From the NCBI GenBank assembly GCA_965227295.1, contig OZ245742.1, positions 4,960,001 through 5,024,000 on the forward strand: 64,000 nucleotides of DNA, given 5' to 3'. Source of the stretch: Leptonemataceae bacterium (GTDB lineage: Bacteria > Spirochaetota > Leptospiria > Leptospirales > Leptonemataceae). A program made the translations under genes and the position numbers. The notes under the pieces were generated by a model. It saw nothing but the letters and a program-made list of their open reading frames with translations, had not been told where the DNA came from and did not search any database. This document shows positions 43,270 to 53,176 of this stretch, piece by piece. Every line of letters starts with the position of its first letter. Position 1 is the stretch's first letter.

Positions 43270-43986
43270 CAATCTTCCTCGTCTGCGTAATCCTTACGCT
43301 TGTTTATCATCAGCGTTTTCTGTATGTGCACCGTGCGCCTGTTTCCCGACGCCTGGCGGAGCGTGACATTGTTCGTGAACCCCGCCACCGTCCTCGACTG
43401 GCACAGGCGAAGACACAAAGACTTCTGGACGTTCGTCACCAGTTTCCGTAAGCGCGGCGCCCTTTGTTTGGTTTCTTCGTCATCCAGCACGAACATCGTA
43501 AGTTGCTTTGTTTGAATGTTACCGAACGTCCCACTGCCGACTGGATTCGCGAGCAATTGATTCAGGCATTCGTCGGCCAACCGCATATATTGCGGTTCTT
43601 GATCTCGGATAACGACGTTCTGTTTCAGCCTGTTCGGAAGTTTATCGAAGGCACGCTCGACCTTGTTTCTCTGCGCACGCAGATCGCAAGCCCCTGGCAG
43701 AATGGGATTGCCGAACGGTTCGTCCGGACCGTGCGGGAAGAACTGCTGCAGTTCATGCTGCCGTTGAGCGAGACCGTGGTGCGCCAACGCCTGCTGGAAT
43801 ACATGGCGTATTACAATCAGCACCGCACGCACGCGTCTGTGGACCTCGATTCACCGGAGGGCCGTGAGACAGGACCGCCACCCGGTAATAACGTGCGGCT
43901 CTTGCGAAAACCTGTGCTCGGCGGGCTGCATTCTACGTATCATTGGGAGGCCGCTTGAAGGCGTGGATGAGTATTTCAAGCTTACA
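43270..43986 (+). mobile_element. Degenerate rve/integrase-core transposase with right-end motif
   Basis: N-part (PATVLDWHRR) joined by deletion/frameshift to core 43464-43958 (SPWQNGIAERFV, YYNQHRTH, LGGLHSTY); end gatgagtatttcaagcttaca at 43966-43986. Confidence 0.8.
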
Positions 43987-44081
43987 GGGCACGGTGGCTT
44001 AGATTGCATGTGCCGTCGGGGATGGTAAACTCTTTTTCGCTGCGTACTCGATTAGCTCGGAGGTTCTTTTGAGCCTAGCCA

Positions 44082-44483
44082 TCATAAATTAACAATGCCT
44101 AAAAATTTCCTGAAGACACTGGCCACTTCAGGATGGACAGGAGAAAGTACGGATATTTCTGCCGGCTCCGTGCATATATGAAGCACGGAAGGAGTAGCAT
44201 CTAGCGCAAGAGGCATCTCGTCTTTCTCTATTTCTATTAGCTCCGAAACGAGATCAGTCGTTGTGTGTTTTGAAATTTCCATCGTGGCACGAGGTTTTAC
44301 ATCATTACGAGAGAACAAATATGCCATTGCTCTTTCTTCCTCTCCGACGACAACTAAGTCAAATTCCGGATGCGCCCCTGCGATCAAGAGTTCAAACTCA
44401 GGACTCGGCGAAGTATGCTGGTACTTAGCTAATGACGCCCGCAATACCGTCTTTCTAACTTTATCGAAAACATCATCTCCCAT
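44082..44483 (-). CDS. Putative immunity protein (orphan module)
   Basis: 133 aa, AT-rich, GAGGGG RBS; follows a short toxin-like remnant. Confidence 0.5.
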   Translation of the reverse strand: MGDDVFDKVRKTVLRASLAKYQHTSPSPEFELLIAGAHPEFDLVVVGEEERAMAYLFSRNDVKPRATMEISKHTTTDLVSELIEIEKDEMPLALDATPSVLHICTEPAEISVLSPVHPEVASVFRKFLGIVNL

Positions 44484-44493
44484 TATTCCCCTC

Positions 44494-44682
44494 TCAAAGA
44501 AGCTCCCTTAATACTTTCATCTGTGCCTCTGTGTATACTCCCGAGTCGAGAATCCTCTGAATGTGACCTCGCAAATTATTCGGCTGAAAAATACCGGAAT
44601 ACTTGATTGGACCACCTGGCGGAATCAACCAGGTGGACTGCTGTCTTTGCGTGGCAAGCACTAAAAGATCATCAGCAGGCAA
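44494..44682 (-). pseudogene. Putative truncated toxin C-terminal remnant
   Basis: Short AT-rich frame lacking a convincing start, cut off by the IS-end remnant at 44695-44746. Confidence 0.4.
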
Positions 44683-44694
44683 CGTTGATATTGT

Positions 44695-44746
44695 TTGTGT
44701 CGATTTAGATGGCGGGTTTGGCTGAGTTCAGTTTTTCGAAAGCACG
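44695..44746 (+). mobile_element. Transposase 3' remnant plus right-end motif
   Basis: cga ttt aga tgg cgg (RFRWR) resembles RYEWR of the intact transposase; followed by gttcagtttttcgaaagcacg. Confidence 0.5.
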
Positions 44747-44761
44747 GGTCACACACTACTC

Positions 44762-45085
44762 CTATTCAAGCGCCCGAAATTCCTCAAAGACAGCTCTGTA
44801 ATCAACTGTTCCTTTCTCTTCAAAGCTACGGATTTGCATGCGCCCCAAAAGCCCCGGCCCAAGAGGAAAGATTTCTCCATTCCCTCTAGATACCAGGTAA
44901 GGATTATTAGGGGTCAAGGCGTATCTGGGATCTCTCGTCTGGATGTGTTTTTTGGTCTGGCAATACAGGATCCAATAGTCTTTATGCTCCACTATCTCGG
45001 TTTGCATAATTTCAAGATCATGCTCACCTTCAATCTCTTTTTGACAATGATCTATGACAGCCAGTTTAGCTTCTTCTAATGTCAT
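44762..45085 (-). CDS. YrhB/Imm35-like immunity protein
   Basis: WILYCQTKKHIQTRDPRYALTPNNPYLVSR pattern; overlaps the stop of the papain-fold toxin. Confidence 0.78.
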   Translation of the reverse strand: MTLEEAKLAVIDHCQKEIEGEHDLEIMQTEIVEHKDYWILYCQTKKHIQTRDPRYALTPNNPYLVSRGNGEIFPLGPGLLGRMQIRSFEEKGTVDYRAVFEEFRALE

Positions 45086-51416: not shown

Positions 51417-51450
51417 CAGGCTGCTGCCCAGGGCCCCCAGGGGGCCGGTC
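50662..51450. repeat. 789-bp direct repeat shared by the two orphan cassettes (copy 2)
   Basis: Near-identical to 46997-47785. Confidence 0.95.
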
Positions 51451-51515
51451 GGGCCGTCATCCTCTAAGATTCTTTCTGTTTAGATTAAGAACTGATCTCT
51501 TGCGATTTTTCTTTT

Positions 51516-51638
51516 GGGCGTTCCGGCCCGCCGCGCCGCGGAGGCGGCGGGCCGTCGCGCTGCTACGGGCTTCGCTTCGCTGCGGTCTCGCGAAGACGCG
51601 AGACTGGCGCTGCGCGCCACCCTGCGCATCGCTAACGC
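51516..51638 (+). repeat. Flavo-1-like structured element between an orphan cassette and the transposase
   Basis: First ~43 bp identical to the 47917 copy; ends ATCGCTAACGC. Confidence 0.8.
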
Positions 51639-51737
51639 TTGTGGTTCGCGGCGTGTGTCGTAAATAGAGAGGGGATTACAGTAGTCGCCCCGATTTCGCC
51701 GATAATCTCAGCACTCCCCTGGATAGGAAGCTCCGCA

Positions 51738-52769
51738 ATGTCCGGTCTTATTCTGCTGTTCATTTTCACAATACAAGGTTACGCTCATCGTTACCTGCTA
51801 CTCGAAAACATCGCGCTCCGTCATCAGTTATTGGTTTACAAACGAACGATCCGGCGCCCTGCGTTAAACAACCGCGACCGTCTACTCTGGATATTACTCT
51901 CGCGAATCTGGAACGGCTGGCAAGAACACGTGGCGCTCTGGCAACCCGCAACCGTTTTGAAGTGGCGACGCAACATCTTAAGGCTCGTTTGGAAATGGAA
52001 ATCCCGCGGCGGTCGGCCAAAGATTCCCATCGAAGAAATTCGGCTCATTCAAAGACTCGCAAAAGACAATTCAGCCTGGGGGCCACACGAAATTCAGCGA
52101 GAAATGATTGCGCTGGGATTTCCCGAACGACATCCTGACACGATCGCTGCATACATGCCGAAGCGACGTCCGCGCAATCCCGGTGGACCTTCGTGGCAGA
52201 CGTTTCTCAATCTGCATCGCGAACGCATTGCAGCGATGGATTTTTTTGTGGTGTATCTCTGGAATTTCGTACCCGTGTATGTGTTCTTCGTCATCGGCCA
52301 CGGCCGGCGTAATGTTCTGCATGTGAATGTTACGAGATATCCCACGTTCGCATGGGTGAAGCAACAGTTGCGCGAGGCGTTTCCAGGGGATCACGAATCG
52401 CGTTTCCTCGTTCACGATAACGAGCCCGCATTCAAGGCGTGCCGAAGATTTATGGAAACCTGCCTGGATATTTTACCACGGCGAACCGCGCTGTGCTCGC
52501 CGTGGCAGAATGGGATCGCCGAACGTTTCGTGAAGACCGCACGGAATATGTGCACAGATCACATCATTCCATTGAGTGAACGGCACTTGTTGAAGGTCAT
52601 GCGCGAATTCGCGCAGTACTACAACGAAGATCGCGGTCATTCCGCAAATGCTGGCGATTCACCAGCAGGGCGTGCAGTTACTCCCCGACCGTCGCCCTCC
52701 GCGAAAATCGTTGCCATTCCGCGCGTAAGAGGGCTGCATCATCGCTATGAATGGCGGGAGGTCGCATGA
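51738..52769 (+). CDS. Integrase-core (rve, DDE) transposase, apparently intact
   Basis: ENIALRHQL, QPATVLKW, GRP, AMDFF, HDN, SPWQNGIAERFV, YYN..R.H and GLHHRY motifs; start placed at MSGLILL. Confidence 0.88.
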   Translation: MSGLILLFIFTIQGYAHRYLLLENIALRHQLLVYKRTIRRPALNNRDRLLWILLSRIWNGWQEHVALWQPATVLKWRRNILRLVWKWKSRGGRPKIPIEEIRLIQRLAKDNSAWGPHEIQREMIALGFPERHPDTIAAYMPKRRPRNPGGPSWQTFLNLHRERIAAMDFFVVYLWNFVPVYVFFVIGHGRRNVLHVNVTRYPTFAWVKQQLREAFPGDHESRFLVHDNEPAFKACRRFMETCLDILPRRTALCSPWQNGIAERFVKTARNMCTDHIIPLSERHLLKVMREFAQYYNEDRGHSANAGDSPAGRAVTPRPSPSAKIVAIPRVRGLHHRYEWREVA

Positions 52770-52790
52770 GATAGGTTTTTCGGGAACACA
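52770..52790 (+). mobile_element. Right-end motif of the transposase element
   Basis: gataggtttttcgggaacaca immediately after the stop codon, ending in ACA. Confidence 0.6.
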
Positions 52791-52801
52791 GGCACCAGAA
52801 C

Positions 52802-53176
52802 TTAATTAATCAAACTTCGGAGAGAAACTCGCTTAAAGGACCCGCGATAATGCTCCTGTGCAGCTTCAATCCTGTCAAAATATTCTTCGCCCTCTGGCTC
52901 TGCAAGAACCTCGACTCGACGACAACGTATCTCGAATTCTTCGGCCTCACTACGGAGGGTCAGGGATTCATCGCTTTCGTAGATTTCAATATGTTGGCCG
53001 ATTTGGAATCCATACCCAAAGTGTAAACCCTGTACTTCGTGGAATACTACTAGATACCATTCTTCATTTTCCTCTAATTCGACGTCGGCCAGGAGTATCC
53101 TGTCGGCTCCATACAAGGCCATGAGTTTCAGGTAAGCTCCTTCAAATCTCTTAGGGAATATTGCATTCGCATTCAT
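52802..53176 (-). CDS. Putative immunity protein 2
   Basis: Acidic, AT-rich; FEIRCRRVEV resembles FSVSCDRVVL of the upstream gene; start placed at MNANAIF. Confidence 0.55.
   Translation of the reverse strand: MNANAIFPKRFEGAYLKLMALYGADRILLADVELEENEEWYLVVFHEVQGLHFGYGFQIGQHIEIYESDESLTLRSEAEEFEIRCRRVEVLAEPEGEEYFDRIEAAQEHYRGSFKRVSLRSLIN

Follow-up and report, generated by a model that had tools for sequence, protein, structure and literature searches.

The window analysed here is a 64,000-nt stretch of the genome of a Leptonemataceae bacterium (contig OZ245742.1, positions 4,960,001 to 5,024,000 of the forward strand; coordinates below are those of the window unless they are given as genome positions), and the region of interest within it is a predicted array of orphan toxin cassettes, in which a shared pre-toxin region is combined with differing C-terminal tips. 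The array is headed by the gene for a main polymorphic toxin, termed giantB, and continues on the same strand with 5'-truncated toxin genes. A small open reading frame (ORF) lies after each toxin gene, and only one of these, the predicted Imm35 gene, matches a known family (Table 1). The spacers between an immunity gene and the next cassette are filled by elements that end in a 21-bp motif, which we identify as the right terminal inverted repeat (IRR) of an insertion sequence (IS) related to IS3 and IS481. The right ends of these elements lie 11-95 bp from the immunity stop codons, and at their left ends a GC-rich module resembling repetitive extragenic palindromic (REP) sequences abuts the truncated next toxin gene.

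Table 1. Features of the orphan cassette array and its border elements, in window coordinates (PWM, position weight matrix)
Feature	Position	Strand	Evidence and remarks
TcA-like giant gene (2900 aa), convergent, closes the region	34567-43269	+	Pfam VRP1, ABC_toxin_N, Neuraminidase and complete TcA_TcB_BD
Decayed IS of type A, 5'-truncated, IRR at 43966-43986	43265-43986	+	rve_3 in ORF 43464-43958
Putative remnant cassette: two small AT-rich ORFs of 62 and 133 aa	44082-44682	-	No Pfam match; stop 95 bp from IRR
Solo IRR, most decayed copy	44726-44746	+	Leave-one-out PWM score 18.1
Predicted Imm35 immunity gene of cassette 1	44762-45085	-	Pfam 31.4 bits (cut-off 27.5); stop 15 bp from IRR-like end
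Orphan toxin cassette 1	45082-47914	-	ORF residues 51-416 are 39% identical to giantB 2589-2991
Transposase-less element: REP-T 47915-48037, module X 48038-48313, DUF1016/SNase fragment 48317-48565 (antisense), IRR 48579-48599	47915-48599	+	
97-aa ORF, putative immunity gene of cassette 2	48616-48909	-	Overlaps toxin stop; no Pfam match; stop 16 bp from IRR
Orphan toxin cassette 2 (837 aa)	48903-51416	-	Residues 6-317 are 47% identical to giantB 2689-2991; C-terminal part differs
Intact IS of type B: REP-like left module 51514-51659, transposase 51738-52769, IRR 52770-52790	about 51514-52790	+	rve_3 and HTH_32
Two overlapping small ORFs (53190-53492, 100 aa; 52802-53230, 142 aa)	52802-53492	-	Immunity-type by position only; no Pfam match; stop 11 bp from IRR
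giantB, main polymorphic toxin (3482 aa), array head	53499-63947	-	ORF; no Pfam match

The kinship of the toxins is apparent from giantB, in which residues 2589-2991 show homology to the N-terminal part of each orphan toxin. The two orphan proteins are 63% identical over 495 aa. Their 5' parts (46994-47293 and 50659-50958) share 98% DNA identity over 300 nt, and their C-terminal tips differ. Given that the identity of this 300-nt stretch is so much higher than that of the proteins overall, recent gene conversion between the orphan cassettes is suggested. The longest ORF of cassette 1 (992 aa) runs on to 48060 through the adjoining REP-like repeat, and homology to the other toxins begins exactly at the edge of that repeat, which belongs to a subfamily called REP-T below. 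The C-terminus of this cassette gives a weak Gln_amidase match (E 0.0094, below the cut-off). At the far end of the array, the stop codon of the TcA-like gene lies within sequence common to the type A remnant (junction 43265-43269), and therefore the element abuts or clips the 3' end of this gene.

The motif is present on the plus strand at 43966 (GATGAGTATTTCAAGCTTACA), 44726 (GTTCAGTTTTTCGAAAGCACG), 48579 (GATGAGTTTTTCGAACTTACA) and 52770 (GATAGGTTTTTCGGGAACACA), and it is not palindromic. The distances to the stop codon of the nearest convergent small ORF are 95, 15, 16 and 11 bp, respectively. A degenerate pattern built to fit three of the copies has three matches in the window, compared with 0.00 expected from 100 shuffles, and the fourth copy departs from it at a single position. 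When a PWM trained on nine right ends was scanned against both strands of the genome (5.94 Mb, 59.8% GC, single contig), scores of 22 or more occurred only at the nine training ends, which is circular, and the best other site scored 20.4. Leave-one-out scores are free of this circularity. The copy at 48579 then scored 30.7, with no unknown site as high, and the copies at 52770 (19.2) and 44726 (the weakest, 18.1) were each equalled or exceeded by two unknown sites in the whole genome. On the basis of these ranks, all four copies are true relatives of one sequence.

Several observations establish that the motif is the IRR of an insertion sequence. At 52770 it begins one base past the stop codon of the transposase ORF, a single 343-aa frame with rve_3 and HTH_32 domains (Pfam) and a conserved DD35E triad (D168/D227/E262, with a D-E spacing of 35). 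Five copies of the type A element share homology that spans the 3' end of the transposase gene and the motif, ends exactly at the terminal ...ACA, and gives way to five different flanks. Likewise, in genome G035 (labels beginning with G and L denote genomes and loci, respectively, in our analysis), six copies are alike up to ...GCGAGACTCA (...GACTCA) and are then followed by six different flanks. End motifs related to the IRR also follow the transposase in G013 (GATGACTTTTTCGAGGGTACA), G007, G019, G008, G026 and G012. Given that homology ends at the last motif base in the type A and G035 copies, and that related ends occur elsewhere, the motif represents the right terminal inverted repeat of an IS3/IS481-related element.

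The transposase belongs to a large protein family (2489 proteins at E <=0.001), and its placement among the named IS families is less direct. With the NCBIfam models it scores 64.8 bits for IS481 (NF033577, cut-off 224) and 52.4 bits for IS3 (NF033516, cut-off 160). Four relatives of the window transposase score 69.7-107.5 bits with the IS481 model, again below the cut-off of 224, and a true IS481 of the same genome scores 284.6 bits. The single ORF and the DD35E triad are those of IS481 even though its curated cut-off is not reached, and the frameshifted two-ORF layout of IS3 is absent. Because both scores are far below the cut-offs, we refer to these elements as an unclassified clade of the IS3/IS481 group. 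A tblastn search with the window transposase finds only seven pieces in its own genome, and four more places, at ~2.367-2.382 Mb, carry an exact match to the core of the 43966 copy. Identity between the transposases of types A and B is 41-43%, and therefore two IS species are distinguished.

The four copies in the window comprise one intact element and three decayed ones and represent at least two IS species. All four have the same orientation, with the transposase antiparallel to the toxin genes. The type A remnant lacks 259 nt internally and is 98-99% identical to genome positions 2382647-2381667 (copy b4, corresponding to L002:11667-12647). These twin copies, which lie in two toxin loci, share the same 5' breakpoint and have different flanks on either side. 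The transposase-less element is 87% identical over 47915-48535 to genome positions 768406-767794. Upstream of 44726, a BLAST search reveals no IS homology, and this copy is a bare 21-nt remnant.

These results can be compared with a preliminary description of the DNA, made from its sequence alone, in which the motif was first pointed out. The four copies, their common orientation and their distances to the facing stop codons were all recovered at the positions given there. It had also stated that two copies follow rve transposase genes, one intact and one decayed, and this agrees with the rve_3 gene with its triad at 51738-52769 and with the truncated remnant at 43265-43986. The existence of two IS species bears out the statement that the copies are too diverged for a single recent burst, and the genome-wide scan that had been proposed as a check leaves 0-2 unknown sites as good after leave-one-out. 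The third copy, however, had been thought to follow the last codons of a transposase gene, and upstream of 48579 just ~10 nt resemble a transposase end. Moreover, the motif at each module had been described as a transposase right end, which it is, but the elements extend further: those at 47915-48599, in a second toxin locus of this genome (locus B) and in G093 keep the left-end module as well.

The fragment within the transposase-less element gives a weak SNase match, and a full-length version of the gene is present at L017:8002-9012. Genes of this DUF1016_N plus SNase type adjoin IS elements in three genomes (L017:8002-9012, L063:3772-4824 and L083:7654-8643). The gene lies to the left of the IS in G058, to the right in G129, and is represented by the fragment in the window, and some IS variants may carry it as a passenger.

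Whereas the right end of the element is defined to the base, we infer the left end only, and in the intact IS do so from the constant edge of REP-T with its variable partners and from an analogue in G093; a TGTGTCG at 51664 is an alternative boundary. Where the left part of a copy is kept, the same REP-like repeat adjoins it (eight of nine copies). This repeat is GC-rich, palindromic and ~125 nt long, with the typical ends TCTTTTGGGCGTC...GACGCGAAGAG, and BLAST finds 122 matches to it across the genome, of which 50 are full length. Further copies are found in the first 16 kb of the window. The REP-T subfamily, whose inner end reads ...TAACGCT followed by TGTGGTTCG..., has 15 copies, all in toxin loci except one that lies beside an IS5-like fragment. 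The outer edge of REP-T joins toxin genes cut at different points, namely tox1, B_tox984, an 836-aa ORF at 768 kb and the PT-HINT toxins at 523 kb and 2285 kb. Because a fixed edge meets variable partners, REP-T is probably a mobile-element terminus, and specifically the left end module of the IS. A 410-nt element of G093, which combines the leader of its IS with the IRR end, supports this assignment. If REP-T is the left end, then units composed of REP-T, module X, a short remnant and the IRR would be derivatives akin to miniature inverted-repeat transposable elements (MITEs). The G093 element has the features of such a derivative, and in the genome of the window two copies, b1 and b3, share one structure with a presumed left terminus.

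Module X (276 nt) is present in seven copies in the genome. The window copy is ~81% identical to those of locus B and contains a perfect 26-nt palindrome (48091-48116). The module has one constant end (...TTTGCAACTACAATCG), and this end adjoins either the DUF1016/SNase gene or any of four different points in the transposase gene. One copy occurs without the REP-like repeat. An Rfam search of 43000-53600 at E values up to 1 gave no match, which places module X, the REP-like repeat and the motif outside known RNA families. A left inverted repeat was sought by local alignment of the flanks of 11 loci, and only noise was obtained. In five relatives, the REP-like repeat has 1-2 weak partial matches each, a result that is silent on whether the repeat is borne by the host or by the IS. 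No target duplications were seen at nine elements taken to keep both termini, the flanks being read by eye, and the best candidate across end definitions is a 3-bp GGC at the intact copy with the left end set at 51661. The bases flanking solo REP copies are inverted, not direct.

Every one of the 11 IS-derived copies in this genome is found within a polymorphic-toxin locus (one each at 42k and 2286k, four in the window and five in locus B). Of 24 copies belonging to three other families of mobile elements, nine are in or near such loci (true IS481, 3/6; IS5-like, 1/9; group II intron reverse transcriptases, 5/9), a difference with a Fisher p of 5e-4 among copies that are not independent. Toxin loci are a general sink for mobile elements, and this IS is more strictly confined there. 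Examples of the other families include a true IS481 at L018:10966-12393 (genome 526966-528393; six copies genome-wide), which immediately follows, in convergent orientation and without any gap, an immunity-like ORF of 118 aa downstream of a PT-HINT toxin. In locus B, a further true IS481 copy runs in the same direction as the toxins. Genes for group II intron reverse transcriptases are located within or beside toxin loci at L001:13275-14690, L004:4139-5989 and L017:5646-7496.

Locus B (2.355-2.383 Mb) is paralogous to the window locus (W). It includes a 2410-aa toxin that ends in Ntox30 and is 58% identical to giantB over ~2000 aa, together with further orphans. A copy or derivative of the IS is present at each of its five cassette borders, always antiparallel to the toxins, and one immunity-like gene takes its stop codon from the TGTAA at the end of the bordering element. 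Copies b1 and b3 share one deletion, and copies b2 and b3 share one REP-toxin junction. Near-identical IS remnants are common to loci W and B, where the toxins are just 30-58% identical. Replication direction was considered as a cause of the fixed orientation and rejected. With the origin near 1.18 Mb and the terminus near 4.09 Mb, the copies at 2.286 Mb and at 2.36-2.38 Mb, in loci 80 kb apart, occupy one replichore and lie on opposite strands, and all are convergent with the toxins. In two genomes of the same genus (G001 and G002), neither the transposase nor the N-terminal region of the orphan toxins was found, and they offer no IS-free version of the array for comparison. A search for close relatives in genome contigs with back-translated patterns produced 28 pattern matches, none of which was confirmed.

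The arrangement of the window is repeated in a distant genome, G093, whose transposase is 34% identical to that of the window. There, a 47-kb island (C1:825838-873136; L078 and L091-L093) with two giant-toxin operons and a block of plus-strand genes is located between a hydrolase gene and a 135-aa gene. These two genes are ~220 nt apart in the sister genome G112, from which the island is absent. Reading along the array, a 2092-aa main toxin and a 145-aa ORF precede an IRR (gap 2 bp), a 1532-aa orphan and a 171-aa ORF precede another (gap 44 bp), and a 1369-aa orphan and a 168-aa ORF precede a third (gap 8 bp), after which come an intact IS and the backbone. The three IRRs, found after 3/3 modules, each belong to a copy of the 410-nt MITE-like element, and the copies are 91-95% identical. 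Within this element, bases 27-320 correspond to the leader that precedes the intact transposase on its left, the IRR is contained in the final ~90 nt, and the first 60-90 nt are a dispersed GC-rich hairpin repeat. The intact IS is ~130 nt inside the island edge. No duplication was found at the island junctions and no right-end-like sequence at the far junction; all four motif copies are at module ends.

To assess the association more widely, two sets of genomes were used. The first comprises 13 genomes with 25 right ends and is biased, because it was partly picked for joint matches to transposase and toxins. In this set, 22 of 25 right ends face a convergent ORF, and the others face a co-directional ORF, another IS and an ambiguous neighbour. 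A verified toxin module is present on the right-end side in 10/25 cases, four are clearly otherwise, and the rest are without assignment. Where the ends are readable, the distance from right end to convergent stop ranges from -5 to about 236 bp, with many below 45 bp. The strict regular expression for the right end matches one subclade only and gives no basis for counting solo ends across all loci.

The second set was drawn by transposase alone. A class-level search matched 51/170 genomes at E <=1e-30, 38 of which were new, and one locus was taken from each of 31 of these 38, picked by score and flank before its neighbours were seen. Matches in the seven left-out genomes were partial or at contig ends. 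At least 1.5 kb lies beyond the right end in 27 of the 31 loci. On the IRR side, a polymorphic-toxin-type gene is the first or second neighbour in 16/27 (13 strong calls and three by weak BLAST matches only). Strong calls comprise PT-HINT, RHS repeats, TcdB_toxin_midN, CDI-toxin or TseH tips, M23 ending proteins of more than 1000 aa, and BLAST matches below 1e-20. On the left-end side, where the neighbours are mostly housekeeping genes, a toxin gene is present in 4/27 (Fisher p = 0.0016), and the first ORF of at least 80 aa past the right end is convergent in 24/26 (binomial p = 1e-5); both p-values overstate the significance, given that neither the copies from one genome nor the genomes from one genus are independent of each other. 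Two singleton large neighbours, in G012 (578 aa) and G011 (526 aa), were not confirmed as toxins. This neighbourhood analysis, also proposed in the preliminary description, supports, throughout the bacterial class sampled, a lineage-wide link between the IS clade and the 3' ends of toxin-immunity modules, which are convergent with the element and located beyond its right end.

The border element is seen with PT-HINT, RHS, TcB-like and M23-tipped toxins in many genera, and in G007, G029 and G010 transposase 3' fragments or tandem right ends follow successive modules. In G010, three tandem units of the last transposase codons plus the right end (L047:8758-9006) are followed by a 122-aa ORF and an 888-aa orphan, and the N-terminal half of this orphan matches a giant ORF (open frame of 4821 aa) ~13 kb away. 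In three G035 copies (L029, L030 and L037), only 2 nt separate the end of the leader left of the IS from the start codon (ATG) of an orphan toxin ORF. This ORF starts with MYEGANIDD..., at the same conserved position as the MYKNDDIVD of the window orphans.

With these observations in mind, we propose that the directly repeated elements serve as a constant 3' flank for recombinational exchange of cassettes, a reading to which we assign a probability of about 0.55. The recombination role is one that we infer from the anatomy of the arrays. The element would land, or would be retained, just 3' of an immunity gene, so that directly repeated copies give every cassette an identical 3' flank and the conserved pre-toxin region gives a common 5' flank. 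Homologous recombination could then replace, duplicate, displace or move cassettes of toxin tip and immunity gene between slots and arrays, perhaps assisted by circles made by the transposase. Under such a scheme, the element would be a border and a recombination handle rather than a site-specific cassette integrase. Element-bearing cassettes may also spread preferentially, which could account for the tight linkage without strict target specificity. Three features of the arrays bear on this proposal, namely the near-identical 5' arms of orphans whose tips differ, the IS remnants common to loci W and B, and the lack of target duplications, which is expected if recombination between copies has reshuffled the flanks.

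Several points weigh against the proposed exchange role. No exchange event was seen, and short spacers by themselves place any inserted IS near an immunity stop. The preliminary description had every module ending at the motif. This holds for 4/4 borders in the window and 5/5 in locus B. The PT-HINT array at 2.28 Mb is an exception, with no IRR at any of its three borders, spacers that consist of the REP-like repeat only, and one IS fragment that lacks the IRR. The proposal does not account for the twin 5'-truncated copies (43265 and genome 2382647), which are without a left terminus and have unique flanks on both sides, or for module X, with its fixed end joined to four transposase-gene points. 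No recognisable toxin neighbour is present at 11/27 sampled loci, where a dehydrogenase, an oxidoreductase and a NUDIX protein are among the neighbours, and the neighbours in the first set included a primase, a leucine-rich repeat protein and a methyltransferase. Other mobile elements likewise accumulate in toxin loci, and the statistical support is tempered by the non-independence noted above.

Some of these points would also be accommodated if dispensable toxin arrays simply tolerate any IS, and only in the short spacers after immunity genes, with the elements inert in cassette dynamics; selection against read-through into the transposase would then explain the orientation, and block duplication would yield the repeated copies. 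This possibility, which we regard as doubtful but worth keeping in view, draws on the 9/24 copies of three unrelated families in or near toxin loci, the true IS481 directly behind the immunity-like ORF in L018, the sampled loci that have no recognisable toxin neighbour, and the clear duplicates among the copies (the b1/b3 deletion and the b2/b3 REP-toxin junction). It leaves unexplained the asymmetry of 16/27 versus 4/27 between the two sides and the 24/26 convergent neighbours across many genera. Nor does it sit easily with two IS species, 41-43% identical, at the same kind of site and in the same orientation, with G093 derivatives that are 91-95% identical behind three different cassettes, or with 11/11 versus 9/24 copies in the same genome. 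Alternatively, the motif might belong to the cassettes as a functional signal of their own (a terminator, a regulatory site or an attC-like site, for example), which the IS merely shares or targets. Its constant position a few bp past immunity stops and the persistence of a solo 21-bp copy at 44726 could be taken in this sense. However, the motif is continuous with the transposase gene, homology stops at its last base, and it is absent from REP-only borders, and we therefore hold a cassette signal to be highly improbable. Further evidence speaks both against such a signal and against an integron-like system, which would have a tyrosine recombinase gene beside the array and imperfectly palindromic attC sites: a Pfam search of 11 ORFs (43464-53492) finds rve_3 only and no tyrosine or serine recombinase, the motif is non-palindromic, and Rfam gives no match in 43000-53600.

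A more active part for the enzyme has also to be weighed. The transposase itself might build the arrays, through an IS2-like circle, through IS26-like translocatable units, in which one element and its neighbouring cassette insert beside a resident copy, or through ISEcp1-like one-ended transposition that takes along DNA past the right end. Directly oriented copies between all cassettes and the lack of target duplications are as in IS26 arrays (Harmer 2014, PMC4196232). The passenger is on the right-end side, the G093 IS is ~130 nt inside the edge of an island that G112 lacks, and an IS2-like element is known to move a locus for contact-dependent growth inhibition in the manner of an IS26 unit (CDI; Ocasio and Cotter 2019, PMC6350997). 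No surrogate right end was found at the far G093 junction, target duplications are absent around every unit, most window copies are without a transposase, and one lacks the left terminus. Furthermore, three joints in the two public runs that cover the stretch (47976>51597, 48271>52062 and 51648>52684) correspond to paralogous copies elsewhere in the genome (REP variants, the 2285k copy and the 42k copy), and in these contig-level runs they are silent on excision or circles. In the light of these points we judge array building by the transposase to be unlikely. A related and more far-reaching proposal, somewhat less unlikely in our view, is that a DDE IS clade and its MITE-like derivatives are specialised on polymorphic-toxin arrays, where they would mark each cassette at its 3' border, with the toxin tip, immunity gene and element forming a translocatable unit. 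If this were true, a transposon family, beyond homologous recombination in the toxin gene, would drive the acquisition, displacement and exchange of cassettes class-wide, and the arrays would be the toxin-cassette counterpart of IS26 resistance arrays or of integrons. The preliminary description had leaned towards targeting or co-travel of the transposase combined with integron-like capture. An oriented and non-random tie to the 3' ends of toxin-immunity modules is supported; no capture step was observed, capture is not supported, and homologous recombination between repeated elements gives the same anatomy.

Returning to the recombinational reading, its interest lies in a gap in current models. 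The gain, displacement and shuffling of orphan cassettes have so far been explained mostly by recombination within the toxin gene, and a source for the downstream crossover has been lacking. A conserved IS or MITE-like border behind the immunity gene is a concrete candidate for this crossover point. The border element is also a practical marker for unannotated toxin-immunity cassettes, and many of the neighbours found here have no Pfam match. In our view the finding exceeds IS debris, and the function proposed for the elements is our interpretation of their arrangement.

Among known elements, those of the IS481 and IS3 families resemble the present IS in having a single rve-type DD35E transposase with a helix-turn-helix, a length of ~1.1-1.3 kb and TGT...ACA ends. 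Unlike them, the present clade scores far below the curated cut-offs, lacks the IS3 frameshift layout and has a long structured left leader. A component of E. coli Rhs elements offers another parallel: H-rpt, of the ISAs1 family, is an IS-like regular component downstream of units of core extension and small ORF. Its transposase family differs from that of the window IS, and we know of no fixed junction of H-rpt to an immunity stop.

IS26 provides a further precedent, in that directly oriented copies lie between and around passengers and single copies are without target duplications (Harmer 2014, PMC4196232). Loci W and B share with such units the direct orientation of the copies (4/4 in the window and 6/6 in locus B) and the absence of duplications. 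IS26, however, belongs to the IS6 family and carries resistance genes, whereas most copies described here lack a transposase, border toxin cassettes and are known from sequence alone. In Burkholderia thailandensis, an IS2-like 'megacircle' carries the bcpAIOB (CDI) genes and reinserts beside a resident IS copy (Ocasio and Cotter 2019, PMC6350997). That system likewise unites an rve-type DDE IS with a polymorphic-toxin locus, but as described it spans 210 kb, has one IS per end and no border for each cassette, and was demonstrated experimentally. The ISAba32 subgroup of the IS1202 family, whose targets are the XerCD sites on the borders of xrs cassettes (Siguier et al. 2022, bioRxiv 10.1101/2022.12.17.520857), is similar in that a DDE IS repeatedly abuts cassette-delimiting sites in one orientation. 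There, the left end is 5 bp from the site and a 5-bp duplication is produced; here the right end faces the cassette and no duplication was seen. In addition, no Xer site was identified in our case, and the ISNCY_2 model matched the true IS481 and not the window transposase.

The closest comparison is with the orphan arrays themselves. Transposases inside such arrays are already known in general terms: CDI loci contain transposase and integrase genes between orphan toxin/immunity pairs (Ruhe 2016, PMC4927057). The large polymorphic-toxin survey of 2012 (PMC3482391) does not treat transposases; in a term search of it the word appears a single time, in a different connection. As in the window, CDI and Rhs orphan arrays are described as consisting of a full-length toxin gene followed by 5'-truncated tip/immunity pairs in the same orientation, with transposase genes in between. 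The present arrays differ in that one IS clade and its MITE-like derivatives recur, always oriented alike and with their right ends a few bp from the immunity stop codon, in many genera and with several toxin families; the accounts consulted of CDI and Rhs arrays describe no border element of such regularity. Titles and abstracts recovered by full-text literature searches, taken without the supplements of the cited papers, give no sign of a regular IS or MITE border at toxin-immunity cassettes. What the present analysis adds to these known systems is a defined IS clade that, together with its MITE-like derivatives, forms a regular border of fixed orientation on the downstream side of immunity genes, in different genera and with different toxin families.

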